IMG/VR virus record: IMGVR_UViG_3300014204_000153
Location: 1 to 64,000 of that record
Strand: one strand, 5' to 3'
DNA length: 64,000 nucleotides
Source of the DNA: a virus
Lineage: Duplodnaviria > Caudoviricetes
The notes under the pieces were generated by a model that was given only the letters and a program-made list of their open reading frames with translations, was not told the origin of the DNA and ran no database searches. The translations under genes were made by a program, and so were the position numbers. Shown here piece after piece: positions 39,559 to 54,344 of this stretch; position 1 is the first letter of the stretch; the number at the start of each line of letters is the position of its first letter.

Positions 39559-39989
39559 GAAAGTTTTTTGAATCTTTGGAAGAAATAAATTATATTGTAT
39601 CTGGAAAGACTAAATTAATAAAAGATATGTTTTCTATCAATGAATCTTTTGATAAAACTCAGAAATACAGAGATAGTGAAGATTACTATATTTCATATGA
39701 AGTAACAGATGGTGAATGTATAGAAGATGTAGCTGCTAGTGAATATGGAGATAAAGCTCTTGAATCTGTTTGGATAATAGCAGTAATGAATGAAATGATG
39801 GATTTTCTTTTCGATTTTCCAATGAGTGGTACAGAATTAGAAAAATCAACAGGCTATACAGAAAAATCTGGAAATATAACATCTACAATGTTTGATACGG
39901 TTGTAGAATTAAACGATAAAAAGAGGATAATAAAAGTTTTAAAGAAAGAATATCTCGTTCAATTTGAACGTGATTTCTTCGGAGACTGA
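39555..39989 (+). CDS. gp53: baseplate wedge protein gp53-like
   Basis: YEVTDGECIEDVA..EYGD....WIIAVMN, RIIKVLK.EY. Confidence 0.75.
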   Translation: MRKFFESLEEINYIVSGKTKLIKDMFSINESFDKTQKYRDSEDYYISYEVTDGECIEDVAASEYGDKALESVWIIAVMNEMMDFLFDFPMSGTELEKSTGYTEKSGNITSTMFDTVVELNDKKRIIKVLKKEYLVQFERDFFGD

Positions 39990-39999
39990 GGAGGATAAG

Positions 40000-40701
40000 A
40001 TGGGTGAATTTCTACAGTACAGACACACCAGCATTATCGATGGAAGTACTATTTCATTTGGACCTATGCGTGTAAAACATCAAATGGCTTTAGTAGAAAT
40101 GGAAGATACAATTACATCTGGAGATGTTTCCGGTGAAAGTTTTACAGAATTATTAAAAAGTATAATCTTTGGACTTATTGATAGAACTGGGTCTAACTTG
40201 TACATGATTGATTATGAAATGCTTTTGTTTAAGATAAGATCAAAAAGTTATGGAAATGAAATAAAGTTTAGAAAAATATATGGAACTGAAGAATATAATT
40301 TAATATTTGATACAGATAAAGATGTTAATATAATTGGTGAAGAAAATAAATCTTCTATAACAGTTCCTTTATGTGATGGTAGAAGTGTTGTTATAACTCC
40401 ACCAACTGTTGCTGAAGCTGATGCTGCTGAAAAAGAAGCTAATGGCAAATTTAGATTGAAAGATCTTATAACTTTAAGACTATCTGTAAAGAAAATAATT
40501 GATGATGAATCTAATGTTACAGATCTTAATAAAGAAGCTGCTAAGTCTTTATTTGAAACAATAGAAATAAAAGATTTAGAATTAATAAAAAAAGAATTTT
40601 CAAAATTTCCTATTCTTTCAGCTATGAAAGAATATTCATTCGGAGAAAATAAATTTACAGTAAATGCTGGAGATTTCTCGTCAAATTTTTTCGTTCTATA
40701 A
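40000..40701 (+). CDS. gp26: baseplate hub assembly chaperone gp26-like
   Basis: GAGGAGG RBS; I.F.PM.VK...AL, IDYEMLLFKIRSKSYG. Confidence 0.7.
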   Translation: MGEFLQYRHTSIIDGSTISFGPMRVKHQMALVEMEDTITSGDVSGESFTELLKSIIFGLIDRTGSNLYMIDYEMLLFKIRSKSYGNEIKFRKIYGTEEYNLIFDTDKDVNIIGEENKSSITVPLCDGRSVVITPPTVAEADAAEKEANGKFRLKDLITLRLSVKKIIDDESNVTDLNKEAAKSLFETIEIKDLELIKKEFSKFPILSAMKEYSFGENKFTVNAGDFSSNFFVL

Positions 40702-40880
40702 TGACGCGTGGTGTAGACCCGATCTCCATGTTCAGGTCTATCTTCTTTAATATAGATGCTATGAAGATGCCGCCGTCAGAGGTTTATAATTTAAATGTAA
40801 GAGATTGTGAGATATTACAAAATATGTGGATAGTTGAAAGAAAAAGAGAAATTGAAATTAGAAGAAAGGGAAGAAAGTGA
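40701..40880 (+). CDS. gp51-like small assembly factor (59 aa; possibly reached by -1 frameshift)
   Basis: TAATG overlap with gp26-like gene; F..I..MK....EVYNL...DCEIL pattern and position. Confidence 0.55.
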   Translation: MTRGVDPISMFRSIFFNIDAMKMPPSEVYNLNVRDCEILQNMWIVERKREIEIRRKGRK

Positions 40881-41083
40881 AGAATGATAATAAATTTACT
40901 ATATTTCTCTGTATGGCTAGAGAAAGATGGTCTGGCTGTAGAATGAAAAAGAATTTATGCTGTGCTAAATGTGAATCAAGAGAAGACTGTATGATAGATT
41001 ATTCAATTAATTTTGGTAATAAAAAACGACCATGTGATCCAGATGATATTGAAGATTGTGATTTTCTGGAGACTATAACTTGA
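40877..41083 (+). CDS. Cys-rich small protein
   Basis: AAGGGA RBS; C..R....C......CC..C.....C...........C......C. Confidence 0.55.
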   Translation: MKNDNKFTIFLCMARERWSGCRMKKNLCCAKCESREDCMIDYSINFGNKKRPCDPDDIEDCDFLETIT

Positions 41084-41418
41084 ACATTCAAAGACCATTC
41101 GGTACAGACTGGCCAAAACAGCCTACGTTAAACGAGGCTACAAGAGCAGCTAGAAAGCATAGGACAGACGCTCATCCTTCAAGAGAACCTAGAGAATGGG
41201 GAAAAGATGTCAGCAGACGATCTATTACAATTAGATCAGATCTGTCTTTTGCTACATGGTACAGAATGGTTACTTCTTCAGGTGAAAGAACTTTTACTGG
41301 GTTTGCTCCTGGTAAACTTTATCACTATGGTTATAGACCAAAATATGCTGAGTCACTTCCTTTCTTTGATGTAAAACCACTGCAATATAATGTTAGTTTA
41401 ACCTCCTTTTATAAATAA
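41080..41418 (+). pseudogene. N-terminal half of split DNA end-protector (gp2-like) gene
   Basis: PGKLYHYGYRPKYAESLPFFDVKPL matches T4 gp2 [25 protein letters not shown], then breaks off. Confidence 0.75.
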
Positions 41419-41430
41419 AAATAAAAGGAG
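41403..41430 (+). promoter_or_regulatory. late promoter TATAAATA (41410-41417) within RBS-sequestering hairpin
   Basis: CTCCTTTTAT / ATAAAAGGAG 10-bp perfect stem. Confidence 0.8.
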
Positions 41431-41437
41431 AAATAAA

Positions 41438-42028
41438 ATGGTTGTCTACAAAAGTATCAATCTAATGAATGGAAAAATTTATATTGGTCAAGATATTCAT
41501 AATAACCCAAACTATCTTGGTTCTGGTAGATATTTTAAAAGAGCATTAGAGAAATATGGAAAAGAAAATTTTAAAAAAGAAATATTATGCGAATGTTCTT
41601 CTTTAAAAGAACTTAATGAAGCTGAGATATTCTGGATAAAAGAATTAGATGCACAAAACCCAGAAATAGGATATAATATTGCTAATGGTGGACGTAGTGG
41701 ATTTACCGGATATCATTCTGAAGAAACAAAGAAAAAAATGAGTATACTAGCAAAAAATAGAATTAGAAAACCACATTCTGAAGAAACAAAGAAAAAAATT
41801 GCAAAAGGTAATACTGGTAAAATTGTTTCTGAAGAAACTAGAAAAAGAATAAGTGAAAAAAGTAAAGGTAGAAAAGGAATGTGGACAATTTCTGAAGAAC
41901 ATAAAAGAAGAATAAGTGAAGTACATACAGGAAAAAAATTATCTGATGAAACAAAAGAAAAAATAAGAATTAGTTTATTTAATTATAGAAATAAAAAACT
42001 TAATACCAACGGTAAAATAAATGAATAA
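41438..42028 (+). mobile_element. GIY-YIG homing endonuclease (Seg-like) with NUMOD3 repeats
   Basis: VVY...N..NGKIYIGQ...YLGSG..F..AL.KYG.ENF, E..WI, GYN; repeated HSEETKKK. Confidence 0.92.
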
Positions 42029-42614
42029 AAAAATAGATAGTAAATATTTTAAAGGATCTGTTAACTATGTTCAAAATGATCCATTTGGAAAAATAAAAGA
42101 AATTAAGGATAAACATAATTTTCGTCATGATCCAATACAATGGCTTAGAGATATTCAAACTAGAGATGAATATAGATTTTCTGGATTTAAACCTGGAAAA
42201 ATTTATCATTTTCAATATCAACCAAAATATAAAGATATTTTAAGTTTTTATGATAGAAAACCATTAATAATTTTTTTAAAATTTAAAGATCCAGAACATT
42301 TTTATGGATACAATTTGCATTTTTGTTCGATGAAACTTAGAGAAAAAATATTTTCTGAGTTTGAACAACATAATAAAAATAGAAATATAACTTCAGAAAC
42401 AGCATGGACATCATTACCAACTATTCAAAAATTTTATCCATTTATTTTAAGAATGTATATTATTAATAGAATTCAAGAAAAAATTTATAATATTCCACAA
42501 ACAGTATATGATATGGAAAATGTAAAACTTTTTCCAAGTGAATATTTCTTTAAAAAATCATCTAATGAAATATTTAAATTATCAATGCAACATTATCTTA
42601 ATAGTAGATTATAA
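42021..42614 (+). CDS. gp2: complete AT-rich DNA end-protector (gp2-like) carried on the insertion
   Basis: PGKIYHFQY.PKYK..LSFYDRKPLII.......FYGYNLHF...LR..I. Confidence 0.8.
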   Translation: MNKKIDSKYFKGSVNYVQNDPFGKIKEIKDKHNFRHDPIQWLRDIQTRDEYRFSGFKPGKIYHFQYQPKYKDILSFYDRKPLIIFLKFKDPEHFYGYNLHFCSMKLREKIFSEFEQHNKNRNITSETAWTSLPTIQKFYPFILRMYIINRIQEKIYNIPQTVYDMENVKLFPSEYFFKKSSNEIFKLSMQHYLNSRL

Positions 42615-42618
42615 TGTC

Positions 42619-42894
42619 ATGAGAGAAGAATTATTCGCTGAATTTGATGATAGACAAGGCGATGCAGCTACAGTAAAATTACAAACTTGGGAAAAGCTTG
42701 GAGTATTATCTAGATACTATCCATTTATGGTACGAAAATATCTGTTCAAAAATATACTTGGAAAAGTTTACGTTATACCACCTGGAATTATAAGTGCTGA
42801 AAATGTTAGAAGATTTGAAACAGAAAAGTTTTATAAATTAACTTCAGATCAAATATTCGCCCTAGCTGAGGCGCATGCAAGGAGAAAGAGTTGA
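42619..42894 (+). pseudogene. C-terminal half of split gp2-like gene
   Basis: MREELFAEF...W..L....YYPFMVRKYL...I...VYVIP aligns to the second half of the 42021 protein. Confidence 0.75.
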
Positions 42895-45800
42895 GAAAGT
42901 CTAGCAGAAAGCCTGGCGGTCCTTACAGGACGAGAAAACCAACAAGAGCAGAAAAAACTATGTCTGCCGCTTCTGGTGCTTCCGCTAGAGAATTCTCCGA
43001 AATGGACTTTGCTACACCAAATGTGAAGAAACATTCTTTAAGAGATCCTTTCAGTGGAAGATATACAACTGCTGCTACTCTATCAGAAACTATGAGAGAT
43101 GCAAGATCTTATGCTGCAGCTTCTATGGTAAAGATTAGAGAAACGATGAGCAAGCTTCAACTTTCTATATTAAAAGCAACATCTGAGACTAATCGTGCAG
43201 CTAAAGATGCTGCTGAAAAAGCTTTAAAGAAGTTTGAAAAAGCAGATGAAAATTTTACAGAAGTATCTAAAGCACTTTATTCTGGAGCAGAAAAAGCTGG
43301 ATCAAATGTAATAAAGAGTGTTCAACTTCTTAGATCTGAAATAGAATCTCTTTCAAATAATGTAGCAGAATTATCAAAAAATGGAATATCTTTAGACGAA
43401 TCAGATGTAAGTAATATGATATTAGCTGTAAAAGAAAAAACCCCTGGTTCTAAAGTTGATGTAGCAGATATATTAGTTCCAGTACAAGATAGACAAGAAT
43501 CAAACAGAGATAAATTAACTGACGTAATGGATTATGTTACTACTGTTCTTGAAAATGATATAGCTAATCATTTAAAGAAAAGAATAGAATCTGGATTTAT
43601 TAAAGATGTAGCTTTAAGAAAGACTTTAAGAGAACAAGTTCTCGGTGAAACTGAAAAACAAGATCGCCGGGGAAGAATGCATATATCGAAATTTGTTGAA
43701 GCTGGAGAAGATGCTTATCTTCCATCTGTATCACAAGCTGTATCTGAAATGAAGAAAGAAATAGCTAATGTTTTAAGTGGTGGAGATACGGCTAAAGCTG
43801 CTGAAAGGTTTACAGATTTAACTGAAGATGCTTTTAAAAGATTAGATAAGATCTTTTCAGAAGAATCAGGATATCTTGCTAAAAATCCTGGTGTAGAAAA
43901 AAGAGATATTGGTATAGCATCAATAGCATCAAGTGTAAGAGATTTAAAAGAGCAGTTTTATGTAAATCAAGATGAATCAACAACCGGAACATCTTCAAGT
44001 ATATCTGAAGAAATAGCAGAAGCAGTTCTTGGAAAAAATAGAAAACTTAGAATAACTCCAGAAGCTGAAGAAGCTTTAGCAAATGCATACAGTGGTAGAA
44101 TGAGTAAAGTTTCAGATTATATAATGTCTGCTGCTAATCTAAGTAAGAAAGAATTTGAAGCAGTTGATAATGCTAAGAAATTAACATCAGAAGCTCCAAG
44201 TGGAGATTATGCTCAAGTTTTGTCCGAAATATTCTCAGAGATGGTTCAAGCAAGAGTAGATAATCCAGATGCAGCTTCAGCTTATGAAGAAGTACATAAA
44301 TTATCTGAAAGTTTATATGCTGTTTATGATTTAATGAAAGATTCAAATGATGCTACAGATGAAGAACTTGAATTTTTTAAAGATAAACTTGGACCTTCTA
44401 TAGATAATTTACTTGATGAAACAGAAAAAGCTAAGAAATCAGAAGATAGTTCAAGAAGAAGATCAAAAGTTATTGAAACTATAGCTTCAGCTAGTGGAAT
44501 TCCTATACTTGAGGATATAGTTGAGTTCTTCTCATCTAGAAAAGATAAACAAAGTAAAGAAAGAGCTGAACAATTAGAACAAAAGAAATCTGCTGCTGAA
44601 AAGATAATGGAAGCATACCAGACTAAAGTTATTTCTAAAAAAGATAAAAATAAGTCAGATTATTTTTCTAAGTATGAAGAATCTATGCCAGAAAAAGCTG
44701 ATGCTGGTGAAATTCTTCAATCAGATGAAGAGTCTAAAAAAGAACAAAAAAGAACTAATTCAATTTTAGAAGATATACGTGAAATCTTTAAGAGAAATGA
44801 ATCTGCTCCTGATAATGAAGAAAATAAAAAGAGCGGAATAATTGATTCAACTCTTGGATATATGGCTGGAGCTAAAGGTCTTAGTATGGTTAGTAAAGTT
44901 GGAGCTGTTATTGCTATGTCTTTAATTCCAATCATTGCTGGTGCATTAGCATATTCTATTACAAAAAAGGTAATTGGAAATAAAGAAGAAAATGAAAGAG
45001 AAAAGAAAGAAAAGTTCTTAGCTTTGAAAGAACAATCTCCTGAGTTATTTGCTGAAGCTGAGAAAAGATATCAATCTGATTTAGCAACTGCTGAAGCTGA
45101 TGCAAAGAAATTCTCACCAGTCTCAAGAGAAGCAGGAGAAGCAAATAAGAAAGTAGCTGCTCTTAGAAGAGATAGAGAATCACAAATAGTTTCAAGAGCT
45201 GAGAAAATAGCTGGAGAAATGGGAATTGAAGCTCCAACTGCTTCAGATGTAATAATCAGAAGAGATTCAGATACTAGTCCAAATATGGGTCTTAAGATAG
45301 GTGATCCTAAAAGAAAGCCTGAGATAATAGTTAAAGATGGTGTAAACTTTGAAGGTCTTCATCCAAATATAAAGCAAGGATTATTTGAAGCTGCTAAAGA
45401 GATGGCTCAAAATGGTAAAGTTTTAAGAATTACATCAGGACTAAGATCTCGTGCTGAGCAAACTGAATTATTTGAAGCTTATAAAAGTGGAAAAAGTAAA
45501 TATCCAGCTGCATCTCCTGGGAGTTCTCCTCATGAGTCAGGACTTGCTTTTGATATAGATAAAGGAAATATACCAGCTTTTACTCAGACCGCTGCTTTTA
45601 AAAATTACTTCGATCAGCCTTTACCAGGTAATGATCCAATTCATTTTGTTTTTAAGGGAGCTAAATTAAATACTGAAACTGAAGCAGTTGCTCAGACTCC
45701 AGAGAAACCAGAAGTTCCTATTTCTTCAGTATATAATAAGACTGAAGTTGCTGCTCAGACTCCAGAGAACCAAAATACTTCAATTCCACCAGTATATAAA

Positions 45801-46103
45801 CCAGAAACAAGTGAAGCAAAAATAGACACCCCACCAGTTGTAACAGATGGAATATCTTTTGAAGATAGAATGAGTCAGATAGAATCTGAGAATGTAAGTT
45901 TATCAGCAATAAAAGAAAGCGAATCTGCTAAAGAAGCAGCTTCAGCTGCGGCAACAATAATTCCAGTACCAGTTCCATCAGGTCAATCTCAGTCTTCTCA
46001 TAGCAGACAATCTGGACAATCCAGCCAACAAGTATCATCTGGACTTGAGAATGATTTGACAGTTCAACATATAGTGTTGTTCACTCTAGATAGGGTAATA
46101 TAA
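42891..46103 (+). CDS. tape-measure/baseplate-hub (gp29-like) protein with M15 peptidoglycan peptidase domain
   Basis: Long helical charged region, hydrophobic GxxxG stretch, LRITSGLRS..EQ..L...ASPGSSPHESGLAFDI (VanY/M15 SxH...D). Confidence 0.75.
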   Translation: MRKSSRKPGGPYRTRKPTRAEKTMSAASGASAREFSEMDFATPNVKKHSLRDPFSGRYTTAATLSETMRDARSYAAASMVKIRETMSKLQLSILKATSETNRAAKDAAEKALKKFEKADENFTEVSKALYSGAEKAGSNVIKSVQLLRSEIESLSNNVAELSKNGISLDESDVSNMILAVKEKTPGSKVDVADILVPVQDRQESNRDKLTDVMDYVTTVLENDIANHLKKRIESGFIKDVALRKTLREQVLGETEKQDRRGRMHISKFVEAGEDAYLPSVSQAVSEMKKEIANVLSGGDTAKAAERFTDLTEDAFKRLDKIFSEESGYLAKNPGVEKRDIGIASIASSVRDLKEQFYVNQDESTTGTSSSISEEIAEAVLGKNRKLRITPEAEEALANAYSGRMSKVSDYIMSAANLSKKEFEAVDNAKKLTSEAPSGDYAQVLSEIFSEMVQARVDNPDAASAYEEVHKLSESLYAVYDLMKDSNDATDEELEFFKDKLGPSIDNLLDETEKAKKSEDSSRRRSKVIETIASASGIPILEDIVEFFSSRKDKQSKERAEQLEQKKSAAEKIMEAYQTKVISKKDKNKSDYFSKYEESMPEKADAGEILQSDEESKKEQKRTNSILEDIREIFKRNESAPDNEENKKSGIIDSTLGYMAGAKGLSMVSKVGAVIAMSLIPIIAGALAYSITKKVIGNKEENEREKKEKFLALKEQSPELFAEAEKRYQSDLATAEADAKKFSPVSREAGEANKKVAALRRDRESQIVSRAEKIAGEMGIEAPTASDVIIRRDSDTSPNMGLKIGDPKRKPEIIVKDGVNFEGLHPNIKQGLFEAAKEMAQNGKVLRITSGLRSRAEQTELFEAYKSGKSKYPAASPGSSPHESGLAFDIDKGNIPAFTQTAAFKNYFDQPLPGNDPIHFVFKGAKLNTETEAVAQTPEKPEVPISSVYNKTEVAAQTPENQNTSIPPVYKPETSEAKIDTPPVVTDGISFEDRMSQIESENVSLSAIKESESAKEAASAAATIIPVPVPSGQSQSSHSRQSGQSSQQVSSGLENDLTVQHIVLFTLDRVI

Positions 46104-48849: not shown

Positions 48850-49742
48850 AATTTTATCAAATAACAGAATCTATTATATCAGATAAGAAAAATCTTTATG
48901 ATAAATCTCCATCTGATATAGCTAAATTCTTTGTAGAATCTAGTGGAAGAAAGTTAGATGTAGCTAAGTCTAGATTAACTTTCTGGAGAAATAGACTTAG
49001 AACAAGAGATAAAAATCCAGAAATAGAAAAGAAGTACAGAGATGCTTTAAATATTATAAATCGAATGGCTGGAAGAAGTTTAAGAAGTAAAGGACATACT
49101 GATAATGATTTAATAAGAAAAACAACAGATGATAGAAAATATCTTATGGCTATTTCAGAGCTTAAAAAAGAAGCAAAGAGATCTGGAAAATATGTATCAG
49201 ATAAAGAAGCAGGAAATATAATATCAGCAGTGTGTGAATTTACAAGAACTGACTATGCTGATATAAGAAAATATCAAATAGCTGATAATCCAGAAAATTA
49301 TAACGATACTTTTAAAAAATACTCAGAACAAATTGAAAAATATATTTCTTTAATGCCAAAGTATAAAGATGGAACTGTTTATAGAGGTATACAAGTAGGA
49401 AGTTTTGGTGAACCAAAAGATATAAAAAAATTTGCATTTTTGAAACCAGGTGATGAAATAGATATGCGTGGAACATCATCTTGGAGTAGTAAAGAAGATG
49501 AATCACATGTTAAGAGAAGAAATATTAAGTTTGTTTTAGAAAAGCCTTTAACTGGAGTATCTGTTAATTTAGTTTCTGAGTTTCCAGCTGAAGATGAAGT
49601 TACTTTTTCTAAAGATTCTAGATTTTATGTAAAAAAAGTTAAGCTCAAAAAAGATCCGGAGCTGTCTGGAGATTATGATGAAAATTCAGATAATTATTAT
49701 TCTTTTATGCATGTTTACATATATGTAGAGGAAAAGGAATAA
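48846..49742 (+). CDS. ADP-ribosyltransferase (R-S-E clade) with putative capsid-targeting N-terminus
   Basis: VYRG, TSSWSS, EDEV; N-terminal MKFYQITE and shared helical module. Confidence 0.8.
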   Translation: MKFYQITESIISDKKNLYDKSPSDIAKFFVESSGRKLDVAKSRLTFWRNRLRTRDKNPEIEKKYRDALNIINRMAGRSLRSKGHTDNDLIRKTTDDRKYLMAISELKKEAKRSGKYVSDKEAGNIISAVCEFTRTDYADIRKYQIADNPENYNDTFKKYSEQIEKYISLMPKYKDGTVYRGIQVGSFGEPKDIKKFAFLKPGDEIDMRGTSSWSSKEDESHVKRRNIKFVLEKPLTGVSVNLVSEFPAEDEVTFSKDSRFYVKKVKLKKDPELSGDYDENSDNYYSFMHVYIYVEEKE

Positions 49743-49748
49743 TTTAAT

Positions 49749-50678
49749 ATGAAATTTTATTTTATATCTGAATCTATAATATCAGACAAGAAAAAGCTAT
49801 TAGATAAAAATCCAATAGAAATAGCTAATTATTTCATATCTTCAAGTAATAATAATATCCAAGCTGCTTTAAATAGAGCAGTCTTTTGGAGTAATAGAAT
49901 AACTTCAGATAGAAAGAATAGTTTTCAAGATAAAGAAAAAGTAAGAAAAGTAGTAGATATAATAAAATCTATGATAGGAAAAGTAAGTATTACTGGTCAT
50001 CATAAAGATGTTTTTGATCAAAATAAAGAAATTCATTTTTTTAAAAATAATGATCAACATGATGAAAAAGATAGATTAAAACATGCAAGAAAATTAATCA
50101 TTTCTGATGCAAAGAAAAATGGTTATAAAATAAATGAAGATCATGCATATGATATGATAAAGTCTGTGTATGATTTTACTGATTCAGATTATGAAGTTAT
50201 GAGAAAAATTCAAAGTGATCCAAATTTTAAATATAATGAAGATGAAAAAGATAAATTAAAATTAAAAAGTAAATATATAGAACAATTTATAAAAATGTCT
50301 CAAAAATTTTCTGGAAATACAATATATAGAGGTTTAGAATTTGAATTATATAAAAGTTTAAAAGAAACATATGAAAAAAATATGAAAATAGTTAAAGGTT
50401 TTTCTGAATTAAAAGAAGGTGAAGAAGTAAATATGTTAGGTACTTCTTCTTGGACTAGTAATAAAAATGAACGTCATGTAAAAGAAAGTAATATTATTTT
50501 TATATGTAATAAACCAAAAAACGGAGTACCAGTTAATCATGTTTCTAGATATCCAAAAGAAGATGAAGTTATGTATTCAAAAGATGCAAGATTTATAGTT
50601 AAAAAAGTTGAAGTTAAAAAGAATAAAGAAGGTGATATAACAAAGATAAAAATCGAAGTTGAAGAAAATAACATTTAA
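49749..50678 (+). CDS. ADP-ribosyltransferase, tandem paralog
   Basis: IYRG, TSSWTS, EDEV; MKFYFISE N-terminus; very AT-rich. Confidence 0.8.
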   Translation: MKFYFISESIISDKKKLLDKNPIEIANYFISSSNNNIQAALNRAVFWSNRITSDRKNSFQDKEKVRKVVDIIKSMIGKVSITGHHKDVFDQNKEIHFFKNNDQHDEKDRLKHARKLIISDAKKNGYKINEDHAYDMIKSVYDFTDSDYEVMRKIQSDPNFKYNEDEKDKLKLKSKYIEQFIKMSQKFSGNTIYRGLEFELYKSLKETYEKNMKIVKGFSELKEGEEVNMLGTSSWTSNKNERHVKESNIIFICNKPKNGVPVNHVSRYPKEDEVMYSKDARFIVKKVEVKKNKEGDITKIKIEVEENNI

Positions 50679-50692
50679 TATATGAGGGTATT

Positions 50693-50974
50693 ATGAATTA
50701 CTCTGAAAGAGAAAAGTCAAGAGCTAAATCTGATAGAAATATAAAAGTTACTTCTCCAGACGGTAAAGTTATCATAGATACTTCATCATTATCGAATAAA
50801 AAGACTAAGTTTAGCGATATACTAAATTTAAAATTGAAAATAGAACGCAATCCTAGTGATGGATCAAAAAAGTATTGGATAACTGGACCAAAAATATTTT
50901 TTGAATTTCCAGATGGTACTACTGAAGATGAAGCAAGAGAAAAGTTGAAAGAAATGAAGAAAGGGAAGAAATGA
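50693..50974 (+). CDS. hypothetical basic protein
   Basis: GAGG RBS; ATGA coupling to next gene. Confidence 0.6.
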   Translation: MNYSEREKSRAKSDRNIKVTSPDGKVIIDTSSLSNKKTKFSDILNLKLKIERNPSDGSKKYWITGPKIFFEFPDGTTEDEAREKLKEMKKGKK

Positions 50975-51357
50975 AATTTAGAGATATCATAGAAGATGAA
51001 GGTGGAGAAGCTTCTCCAGCTGTTAGTACTATTACTACTGATGATATAGCTCAGTTTGGAGATAGAATTGGAGCAAAGAAGAAAAAGAAGCCTCCCATCG
51101 CTAAGAAACCTCTTGTCAACTGGAGAAAGAACCATGTAGAAGTAGAATCGCTAGTCGCGGAAAGAGATTACAGCGAATTCGACGATCTAAAGTCTGCTTA
51201 TCCAGCTAAAGATTCTTACTCTATTTTTACTGAAACAGATCCAGCGACGAAAGTAAAAAGATACATCATAGAGAAAAACAACAAAATAGTCTTTGGTCCG
51301 ACCACTGACGAGAAAGCTGCTAGGTCTAAGCTAAACGATCTTAGAACAAAAAAATAG
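50971..51357 (+). CDS. putative internal head protein
   Basis: MKFRDIIEDEGGEA start; K-rich patch. Confidence 0.6.
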   Translation: MKFRDIIEDEGGEASPAVSTITTDDIAQFGDRIGAKKKKKPPIAKKPLVNWRKNHVEVESLVAERDYSEFDDLKSAYPAKDSYSIFTETDPATKVKRYIIEKNNKIVFGPTTDEKAARSKLNDLRTKK

Positions 51358-51713: not shown

Positions 51714-51738
51714 ATGAGAAAACCTCCACTGAACCAAA
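51714..51738 (+). repeat. 25-bp duplicate of the gp4 gene start (second copy 51981-52005)
   Basis: ATGAGAAAACCTCCACTGAACCAAA exact at both sites. Confidence 0.9.
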
Positions 51739-51768
51739 ATTATAAAAATATAAAATAGGAGATCTAAT

Positions 51769-51984
51769 ATGAAGTTCGTACAGATGATGGAAGATGATAA
51801 TAGCAGATTCAAAGAACTTACTGACAAAATAGCAGAGCTTAAAGGAGAAATGAATAGTAATCGTGGATCTGGGGCTGGGGCTGGAGAGCAACATAACCTA
51901 ATTAAAAGTGATTACATCTATTATAAGAATGAATTAAAAAACCTTAAAGAAAAAATGAAATTGAAAGCAAAGACTACTAAATGA
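51769..51984 (+). CDS. putative internal head protein (coiled coil)
   Basis: AGGAG RBS; MKFVQMMED start; sits between the 25-bp duplicates. Confidence 0.6.
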   Translation: MKFVQMMEDDNSRFKELTDKIAELKGEMNSNRGSGAGAGEQHNLIKSDYIYYKNELKNLKEKMKLKAKTTK

Positions 51985-52439
51985 GAAAACCTCCACTGAA
52001 CCAAAGAGGTAGAAGAAATGTAAAAAGAGGTGTATATATACTCATACACCCAGAGAAATACATTGGAGATTGTAACAATGTAATTTATCGTTCAGGATTA
52101 GAACTTGCATGTTTTAAATTTCTTGATGCTAATTCAAATGTTAAAAGATGGGGAAGCGAAATTGTTCAGATTCCATATTTAGATGCAAGTACTGGAAAGA
52201 AAAGAACTTACTTTGTCGATTTATATTTTGAATCAATAACTTTAAATGGTTCAACAGATAAAGTCTTGGTAGAAGTAAAACCGTCTAATCAGACAATTCC
52301 ACCAAGATCAGATATGAAGAATTACAGAGCAGCTGCAGCTGAGTATGCTAAGAACATCAGCAAGTGGACAAGAGCTAGAGAATGGGCTTCTCAGAACGGT
52401 GCAAGATTTGAGATTATAACCGAGAAGGAAATACATTAA
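51981..52439 (+). CDS. gp4: head completion nuclease gp4-like
   Basis: P.KY.GD...VIYRSGLE..CF.FLD.N..V..WGSE...IPY......R.YFVD......LVEVKP..Q. Confidence 0.9.
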   Translation: MRKPPLNQRGRRNVKRGVYILIHPEKYIGDCNNVIYRSGLELACFKFLDANSNVKRWGSEIVQIPYLDASTGKKRTYFVDLYFESITLNGSTDKVLVEVKPSNQTIPPRSDMKNYRAAAAEYAKNISKWTRAREWASQNGARFEIITEKEIH

Positions 52440-52948: not shown

Positions 52949-53619
52949 AATTCTCAACAGTACTTAAATCTAATGAAAAGCCTCTTTATTCTGAGACACC
53001 AGATAAAATAGTTAATCATTTTTTAAAATCTTCTAAAAATGATAAAGATATTGCTTTAAAAAAATTCATATTTTGGTCTAATGGTCTTAAAAAGAAACTT
53101 AACTATCAAAATAATAAAATATATGTATATAATGTAGAGACTGCTAAAAAGATATTATCTAAAAAAGATGAAGAGCATGAAAATTCTAAAATAGATTCTA
53201 TGATAAATAATTTTAATTTTTCTGAACGAACTAAAAATAGTGTAAAATTAGCATTGGAAACTGGATTTAATTCTTTCTCAAAAACAAAGCTTAGTGATGA
53301 AGAACAGTCATTTATAGATTCGCATGTTTCTGGAGATCCTAAAACAGAAAAAATAAAACCAAAATTACTTAATAATGTTAAACATCCAGTTTCTGTATAT
53401 AGAGCATATAATGATTCTGATATAAAAAAAGATACATTCATTTCTTTTACTTTAAGAAAAGACTGGGCAGAAAATACAGCAAATGATAATGATCTTAAAG
53501 TAATGAAGTTAAATCTTATAGTCGGAGATAAAGTTTTATTTGTTCCATTCTATAATAACAAACATATAGTAGAAGTAGAAGTACTTATTCCAAGTAACTT
53601 AGTTAAAGAAAGAAATTAA
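52945..53619 (+). CDS. ADP-ribosyltransferase-like domain on shared helical N-module
   Basis: VYRA, FISFT...WA, EVEVLI. Confidence 0.65.
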   Translation: MKFSTVLKSNEKPLYSETPDKIVNHFLKSSKNDKDIALKKFIFWSNGLKKKLNYQNNKIYVYNVETAKKILSKKDEEHENSKIDSMINNFNFSERTKNSVKLALETGFNSFSKTKLSDEEQSFIDSHVSGDPKTEKIKPKLLNNVKHPVSVYRAYNDSDIKKDTFISFTLRKDWAENTANDNDLKVMKLNLIVGDKVLFVPFYNNKHIVEVEVLIPSNLVKERN

Positions 53620-53645
53620 TAAAATATAGCAATTGGGGAATTAAA

Positions 53646-54344
53646 ATGAATAAATTCTCAGCAGTACTTAAATCTAATGAAAAGCTCCTTTATTCTGAGA
53701 CACCGGATAAAATAGCTAATCATTTTCTAAAATCTTCCGAAAATGATAAAACTGCTGCTTTAAAGAAATTTATATTTTGGTCTAATGGTCTTAAAAAATT
53801 AAACATTACAAAATATGATTTTAATATAGAAACAGCAAAAAAAATATTATCATCTAATAATAATGATAAACCGTGGAATGAAATACAAAAATATAATGGG
53901 ATGGATGTAGATAAAGAAATGAATCAAAATATAATGGATAGACTTAATTCTAAAACTCATATAATTAGTGTTTGTAGTGGACATCCTAAAGATTCTAAAT
54001 TAGCAATTGATGCAGGTGCATCAGAATATCCTCATTTTATATTTAGTGTTTATAATCCAAGGGATTTTGAAAAAACAGTAGAATATATTAAATCTAAATT
54101 AAAATCAAAAGATACAAAAATTAATGCTCATGCATGGGGAGGACCATATGGAAATTGGGTTGTTTGGAATGATAAAGAAGGTTGGAGAAATCATAAATTT
54201 CCAGAAGATCCTCAAAAATATAAAATAGACCATATTTCAATTACTGTTGAATCAACTATAGCACATAATGGAAAAAATCAAAAAATGTTAAATAATTGGT
54301 GGGAATTAATTACAAATAAACTAGAAGAATTGGATAACATATGA
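53646..54344 (+). CDS. shared helical N-module fused to unrelated C-domain (SxCSGH motif)
   Basis: First about 170 nt near-identical to 52945 gene; C-terminal D.E....I...LN.....ISVCSGHP. Confidence 0.65.
   Translation: MNKFSAVLKSNEKLLYSETPDKIANHFLKSSENDKTAALKKFIFWSNGLKKLNITKYDFNIETAKKILSSNNNDKPWNEIQKYNGMDVDKEMNQNIMDRLNSKTHIISVCSGHPKDSKLAIDAGASEYPHFIFSVYNPRDFEKTVEYIKSKLKSKDTKINAHAWGGPYGNWVVWNDKEGWRNHKFPEDPQKYKIDHISITVESTIAHNGKNQKMLNNWWELITNKLEELDNI

Follow-up and report, generated by a model that had tools for sequence, protein, structure and literature searches.

How does a phage come to hold one gene in three places, twice as a fragment and once entire? The question is raised by a 64,000-nucleotide stretch of viral DNA (positions 1 to 64,000 of the IMG/VR record IMGVR_UViG_3300014204_000153; hereafter the window), which lies within an 85-kb entry with a completeness estimate of 48% and belongs to a distant T4-like myovirus from a landfill metagenome. 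The gene in question is gp2, whose function in protecting DNA ends against RecBCD-type nuclease is established for the T4 protein only. With a full gp2 as query, exactly three places in the whole record are matched: an N-terminal fragment, a complete copy, and a C-terminal fragment. The two fragments are separated by a 1.24-kb AT-rich insert, which holds a Seg-like GIY-YIG homing endonuclease gene followed by the complete, carried gp2. It is likely, with a probability of roughly 0.7, that this insert is the product of one homing event gone wrong, in which a break made by the nuclease was closed through illegitimate repair from a very divergent donor.

The interrupted gp2 locus

Four open reading frames (ORFs) on the plus strand lie between a gene for a Cys-rich 68-aa protein (40877-41083) and one for a tape-measure-like 1070-aa protein (42891-46103). 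The N fragment occupies 41080-41418 (112 aa), its last 10 aa being read from the insert; the endonuclease follows at 41438-42028 (196 aa), the complete gp2 at 42021-42614 (197 aa), and the C fragment at 42619-42894 (91 aa from the ATG at 42619). An initial annotation had recognized two gp2 fragments, an endonuclease and a complete gp2 here, and these assignments were confirmed by the ORFs together with matches to PHROG 429 and PHROG 314. In profile positions of PHROG 429 ('DNA end protector', T4 gp2), the N fragment covers 27-94, the complete copy 30-194 (E 2e-29), and the C fragment 129-198. The resident part of the N fragment (41080-41381) begins with a TTG that overlaps the upstream stop, has GGAGA 8 nt 5' of this start, and ends in ...FFDVKPL; its frame then continues into the insert as far as a stop at 41416-41418. 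The C fragment begins with (M)REELF. Its 3' end includes an AGGAGA ribosome-binding site, and there its stop and the initiating TTG of the 1070-aa gene overlap. The two genes of the insert leave only 56 nt of it uncovered, the start of the complete gp2 overlapping the end of the endonuclease by 8 nt.

The two fragments do not add up to one protein. Four gp2 relatives of the complete copy were found among 5.8 billion proteins, on contigs L001, L008, L009 and L010 (65%, 57%, 54% and 52% identity, respectively), and a profile scan of IMG/VR with the gp2 alignment added two more distant loci, each with a single intact gp2. In a family alignment of nine full gp2 sequences (the carried copy, L001, L008, L009, L010, the two distant IMG/VR loci, and the T-even-type phages Octan and VR25), to which the two fragments were added, the fragments are without the block PL-IIFLK...G-x-N-[LI]-H-[FY]-[IL]-P. 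Across the nine sequences this is the best-conserved stretch of the gp2 family, from the T-even phages to these distant relatives. The loss corresponds by alignment to 24 residues of the carried copy, I83 to L106. That conserved residues were missing had been noted in the initial annotation, whose count of about 19 is the net figure obtained if the junction codons QYNV(M) are counted. Because the conserved block is absent from both halves, a normal gp2 would not be recoverable from them by excision, RNA splicing, or joining of the halves. The carried copy, for its part, has the full match to PHROG 429 and (precomputed) to PF26869, including the PL...G-x-N-[LI]-H block. A sequence search returned no solved structure for it, and a structure model (pLDDT 48.7, five sequences) was too poor to be used.

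The endonuclease gene has an intact frame, is single-copy in the record, and encodes a protein matching PHROG 314 ('homing endonuclease') at E 5e-43. NUMOD3 is matched in three stretches at 35.2 bits, against a Pfam cut-off of 20.4, and five NUMOD3-type repeat units are visible in the DNA, where they appear as the repeats D1 and D2. The Pfam GIY-YIG domain taken alone falls below its cut-off (15.9 versus 22.6 bits), whereas the L008 protein, which at 59% identity is the best of more than 2000 homologues, passes it with 28.0 bits; the translation of the window gene shows the motifs VYK...IYIGQ, GSGR, E, and YNIANGG. The GIY-YIG domain, the NUMOD3 DNA-binding extension and a pattern of presence and absence among relatives, three features of the class, are all found. 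The leader of the gene (41394-41437) has a late-promoter-like motif, TATAAATA, at 41410-41417 and AGGAGA at 41426-41431, and is nearly identical to the sequence before the L008 endonuclease (TAGTT..., TATAAATA, an A-rich spacer, and GGAGA). This similarity begins at TAGTT (41394), directly after an 8-mer, TATAATGT, that recurs at the other end of the insert. Within the window as a whole TATAAATA is not enriched (10 found, 11.5 expected).

Origin and age of the insert

The insert differs from its surroundings in base composition, with 23% GC (range 21-26%, and 21% in the carried gp2) compared with 33% in the window, 40% in the N fragment, and 33% in the C fragment. Its gp2 also differs in its affinities. 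The gp2 proteins of the four relatives are 54-68% identical among themselves, and the carried copy is 52-65% identical to them; the fragments, over their alignable parts only, are 34-52% identical to the same proteins (34-43% for the C fragment), and the neighbouring genes of the window are 33-49% identical to those on the relatives' contigs, with the portal at 60%. In a tree whose clade interior is unresolved, the branch of the fragments has a length of 2.17, as against 0.08-0.34 for the others. These identities, the tree branch and the GC contents indicate that the fragments are the vertically inherited, resident gp2 of this phage, and that the insert is foreign, its source being an AT-rich phage of the clade to which the relatives belong. 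The labels 'resident' and 'cargo' used in the initial annotation agree with these values. In the probable source run, low-depth contigs are 82-84% identical to the carried gp2 at 42195-42305 and 42360-42460, much closer than any database relative; the lineage of the donor is probably a member of that landfill community.

The contigs of the relatives are syntenic with the window, with the order hub, small gene, Cys-rich gene, gp2, and tape-measure-like gene. Homologues of the Cys-rich gene, the native left boundary of the gp2 locus, immediately precede gp2, or the nuclease, in L001, L008, L009 and L010 (39-49% identity). Homologues of the tape-measure-like gene, the native right boundary, whose product has a lysin-type domain and matches PHROG 2649 at residues 819-967, directly follow gp2 in L001, L009 and L010. 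On L008, an 8.9-kb contig of 47% GC, a homologue of the nuclease gene stands free between the Cys-rich gene and a single gp2, and the start of this gp2 lies inside the last nuclease codons, the same overlap as in the window. The low-GC stretch of L008 is the nuclease cassette alone, its gp2 having native GC content at third codon positions (GC3), and no low-GC tract that would point to co-conversion was found in the L008 gp2 past the cassette. The other three contigs have no nuclease at the same place and one gp2 each; L008 and these three together present the pattern of presence and absence that a free-standing homing endonuclease gene shows. The initial annotation had held that the same three-ORF layout in relatives lacking the nuclease would count against an insertion; these relatives have one whole gp2 and no fragments. 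Since the nuclease of L008 is an ordinary one, free-standing beside a native gp2, the 'cargo' gp2 of the window would most simply be the gene next to the nuclease in the donor, which was copied together with it.

No extra gp2 pieces were found in eight other gp2 loci when each gp2 was compared with its own locus by tblastn (best secondary E > 0.004), whereas the same test on the window with the carried copy returned the C fragment at E 7e-17 and the N fragment at E 1e-11. Recurrent integration of the same unit was not seen, the window being the sole case among nine gp2 loci and all homologues found, in a clade that is very thinly sampled. Searches for relatives by way of the hub protein gave none, and those by way of the portal protein gave the L001 contig only. 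Nuclease genes near gene 2 are also present in the T-even-type phages, with a Seg-like gene between genes 4 and 2 in the Acinetobacter phage Octan and a MobB-like gene after gene 2 in VR25. Shared descent of these genes with the window nuclease is not claimed, the 40% identity of the Octan gene being no closer than that of hundreds of unrelated homologues.

In the alignment, both nuclease-linked gp2 alleles have unique changes at otherwise invariant residues of the conserved block, and the seven other alleles have none. In the carried copy [IL]P is changed to CS, and in L008 G is changed to C and PLI to PLC. These changes hint, indirectly, that the linked alleles may escape cleavage. The contrast between NLH in the nuclease-linked alleles and NIH in the others was considered as a mark of immunity and dropped, NLH being the consensus of the wider family.

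A run from another study (X2) bears on the age of the insertion. Identity of its small contigs to the window is 95-99% over 39638-41381 and 87-94% over 43092-43729. One contig of 151 nt, whose orientation was checked against other minus-strand records, covers 41258-41381 with one difference, and its remaining 27 nt, to the right of 41381, fit nothing, the insert and the C fragment included. The X2 phage would be without the insert, because the insert would extend the match past 41381, and also without a precise TATAATGT-bounded empty site, because the match would then reach 41393 and show a joint to 42618; it does neither. The simplest reading is that the X2 allele continues with the conserved block that the window has lost. 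Its departure sets the left joint at 41381/41382 and, because it falls exactly at this junction, the insertion appears to be younger than the 1-5% divergence between the window phage and the X2 phage. At the depth of X2 (2-4, with contigs of 150-300 nt), its zero cover over 42506-43006 is uninformative. Relative to the window, an in-frame deletion of 3 nt is also present at position 41200, in the region of the X2 gp2 that encodes its N-terminal part.

The two ends of the insert suggest where the donor sequence was entered and left. Its first 12 nt (41382-41393), GCAATATAATGT, which are not common to the X2 relative, contain the left TATAATGT (41386-41393) and read GCA ATA TAA. The L009 Cys-rich gene has a similar ending, GTA GTA TAA, and GCAATATAATGT probably represents the final codons and stop of the Cys-rich gene of the donor. 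In the right junction zone (42610-42618), the carried gp2 ends with its final codon and stop, TTA TAA, after which come TGTC and then ATG. The next gene of the relatives starts 0-3 nt past the gp2 stop, and this ATG may be the donor's next start codon; as far as the sequence allows, the right breakpoint is placed between 42614 and about 42622. As the initial annotation had reported, TATAATGT is present at both ends in the same codon phase (41386-41393 and 42610-42617). An 8-mer common to the two 36-nt junction neighbourhoods arises in 3-4% of chance trials, phase not considered, and exact 10-11-nt repeats are frequent in the region. The repeat is suggestive at most and is treated here as unexplained, not as a target-site duplication; both copies may be stop-codon contexts of an AT-rich donor. 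There are nine copies of TATAATGT on the plus strand of the window and one on the minus strand.

Routes to the present arrangement

In the explanation given most weight here, the donor would be a phage of the AT-rich clade with a free-standing Seg-like nuclease just 5' of its gp2, expressed in a mixed infection. The nuclease would have cut the resident gp2 inside its most conserved block, the best-conserved DNA open to it as a target, which in donor coordinates lies 250-320 bp downstream from the nuclease gene's 3' end; about 70 bp would have been lost at the ends by resection. Because donor and recipient would share almost no DNA similarity, normal co-conversion would have been impossible, and the break would have been closed without homology by illegitimate, microhomology-type repair synthesis off the donor. 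The copied tract would begin with the last 9 nt of the donor's Cys-rich gene, take in the nuclease and the whole gp2, and end a few bases beyond the stop of the latter. Survival would be limited to products with a complete working gp2, and the capture of a whole gene would thereby be explained. The resident gp2 would now be two dead fragments, with the donor gp2, probably uncuttable, doing the job. The free-standing endonucleases of T4 are known to cleave at a distance of hundreds of bp or more from the gene that encodes them, and they are inherited only if resection reaches homology (PMC2988022). Illegitimate break repair at microhomologies, with long degradation, has also been shown in T4 (PMC2988022).

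Several observations weigh against this explanation. No uninterrupted resident allele was found by tblastn of the N fragment on 50,697 phage records, and a phmmer search of 1.84 billion representatives returned only the fragment itself and the carried copy. Such an allele was likewise absent from a pattern scan of IMG/VR, a scan of GTDB genomes and scans of JGI metagenomes with the N and C fragments, and from the longer proteins of a word-based search with the C fragment; a cluster look-up gave assemblies of the same genome only. Neither fragment has a stop or frameshift, and these intact frames imply either a recent event or ongoing selection. The insert ends within about 10 nt of gene boundaries, which is tidier than random illegitimate joints require, and the same-phase TATAATGT copies could mark a defined element end. 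Finally, the proposed point of cleavage, the way in which the break would have been mended, the putative immunity of the carried gp2 and the function of both proteins are all inferred from sequence.

Some of these same features can be turned to other accounts. The close fit of the insert to its two genes, its own promoter-like leader, the phased TATAATGT at either end, and the overlap of nuclease end and gp2 start in both the window and L008 would suit an evolved two-gene homing unit, a cassette of nuclease and cut-resistant gp2 that enters any gp2 without flanking homology. We consider such a unit unlikely, since in L008 the foreign low-GC stretch is the nuclease cassette alone beside a gp2 with native GC3, and no second case was found in eight gp2 loci or in the four relatives from 5.8 billion proteins. 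In addition, the left 12 nt resemble the tail of a donor upstream gene and not the end of an element, and the 8-mer repeat is only marginally beyond chance. The initial annotation had proposed a selfish element that brings its own substitute, and the outcome fits this description; its evolved two-gene form is unsupported, given the free-standing nuclease of L008 and the lack of a repeat case in the eight other loci. If true, a two-gene 'destroy and replace' unit could invade the gp2 of phages without flanking homology, and it would point to a general intron-free class of homing that carries a whole immune copy of an essential target. An old, fixed arrangement in which the fragments have uses of their own, with no bearing on recent homing, is less probable again. 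The N fragment could serve as a small protein, and the C fragment could be kept for its ribosome-binding site and the coupled downstream start; both fragments are open, the AGGAGA and the overlap with the TTG start of the 1070-aa gene are in place, and the carried gp2 stops 4 nt before the ATG of the C fragment. The insert, however, is still at 23% GC in a 33% genome, and a phage 95-99% identical, that of X2, departs exactly at its left junction.

The remaining two accounts have little to recommend them. An assembly chimera of two co-occurring phages might be suspected from the presence in the source sample of other gp2 sequences 82-84% identical to the carried copy, but is highly improbable. 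Logan contigs of the probable source run span 40289-41581 (depth 9.7) and 41554-43993 (depth 6.2) with zero differences, bridging both joints at a depth that is even with that of the flanks (6.8 and 7.1), and a 76-kb ENA/Logan contig encodes proteins identical to those of the 85-kb JGI contig. The JGI, ENA/Logan and Logan assemblies probably come from the same reads and thus check the assembler, not the sample. The junctions, moreover, share only 8 nt, which is too short to mislead a k-mer assembler. Least probable of all is restoration of the resident gp2 by a group I intron, an intein, split inteins, or trans-assembly. Working split genes are known, such as nrdA/mobE in Aeh1 and gene 43 in phage 25 (PMC2988022), as are the 'fractured genes' of split inteins (PMC2677866), but here the halves are without the 24-residue conserved block. 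The 10-aa tail after KPL leaves no space for an intein half. No Rfam family was matched at E <= 1 over 40500-43500, so no group I catalytic RNA was recognized there, and with 56 nt outside the genes the view of the initial annotation that there is no room for an intron is upheld.

Known systems and further observations

The spread of homing endonucleases is considered to be confined to genomes alike enough for the break to be repaired by homology. The gp2 locus looks like a natural record of homing over a wide gap, with neighbour proteins 33-49% identical, for which the price of spread would be the destruction of an essential-type gene and its rescue by the donor copy. If homing of this kind has occurred, nucleases can move whole neighbouring genes between distant phages, leaving gene replacements and pseudogene scars, which bears on phage mosaicism and on the annotation of duplicated or 'split' genes beside nuclease genes. 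The locus also provides a predicted target for the enzyme, the G-x-N-[LI]-H-[FY]-[IL]-P block of gp2, and two natural candidate immunity variants.

Among the closest parallels are two in phage T4. Like the intronless homing of SegE, SegF, SegG and MobE (PMC2988022), the arrangement includes an intergenic GIY-YIG enzyme with a late-type promoter and a patchy distribution among relatives, a presumed cut in a conserved neighbouring gene a few hundred bp away, and donor flank carried along. Co-conversion in T4, however, leaves one hybrid or replaced gene, while in the window the donor sequence sits inside the target and both old ends are kept. The locus also recalls the illegitimate repair seen in T4 intron homing with limited exon homology, which involves a nuclease break, long resection, and joints outside homology (PMC2988022). 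Illegitimate joints have been proposed as a route of mobile elements to new sites, as summarised in that review (PMC2988022). The T4 work described there used engineered plasmid and phage substrates, whereas the present case would be a natural one, joins partners with about 35-50% protein identity, and involves a whole gene. A free-standing endonuclease gene inside a conserved phage gene is also found in nrdA/mobE of Aeh1 and in gene 43 of phage 25 (PMC2988022). Their halves cover the whole protein and reassemble; in the window neither half has the block of about 24 conserved residues, and the gene exists in a second, full copy, so that the distinction drawn in the initial annotation from the split-but-functional nrdA/mobE holds.

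Outside phages, a nuclease beside a foreign copy of its target, with the native sequence displaced and retained, has been described in fungi, and the anatomy, identities, branch length and GC content of the gp2 locus all conform to this arrangement. In the mORFs of Allomyces macrogynus atp6 and of Glomus atp6, atp9, cox2 and nad3, an endonuclease is accompanied by a foreign copy of the target while a native remnant is kept (PMC3630166). The native part is displaced downstream, and the foreign part groups with other species in trees (PMC3630166). The mORFs, however, supply only a C-terminal part, fused in frame to the native core, whereas the gp2 locus has received a complete separate gene with the nuclease upstream of it and retains the two ends of the native gene as stranded pieces. 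The WHO elements at FBA1 of Torulaspora and Lachancea are likewise free of introns and inteins, cut an essential gene with allele specificity, and partially replace it at each integration (PMC7282813). They belong to another enzyme family, affect the 3' end only, proceed by homologous gene conversion, and are eukaryotic and nuclear. What sets the phage locus apart is the combination of a whole separate gene brought in, both native ends stranded, and non-homologous joints.

In the wider genome, the gene order is tail tube, gp53-like wedge, hub, gp2, tape-measure-like gene with lysin domain, gp48-like gene, portal, protease, and major head protein. Within the head-gene region, two low-GC islands (24-27%) at 49001-51000 and 53001-54000 contain ORFs without a PHROG match. 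At 51714 and 51981 (window 51714-52005) there is an exact 25-nt direct repeat, ATGAGAAAACCTCCACTGAACCAAA, at which a gene start is duplicated around a 267-bp insert. This site adds to the gp2 locus a second scar at which inserted DNA brings along, or restores, the 5' end of its target.

Two further observations concern the loci of the relatives. On L001, the small 59-aa-type gene is separated from the Cys-rich gene by an extra ORF of 179 aa (L001:170-709) that the other relatives lack. This ORF, which is without a Pfam match and contains the stretch ...NGNEWHHINK..., may be another mobile gene at the gp2 locus. The motif K(P/T)G(N/E)(I/V)PWNK is present in the gp2 N-termini of L001 and L010 and in the tape-measure-like protein of L001 (tblastn E 0.004), with coordinates L001:958-1040, L010:2768-2790 and L007:4168-4230. 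It is reminiscent of the tails with which phage nucleases bind DNA, and may have been left behind by nuclease genes that were formerly present.

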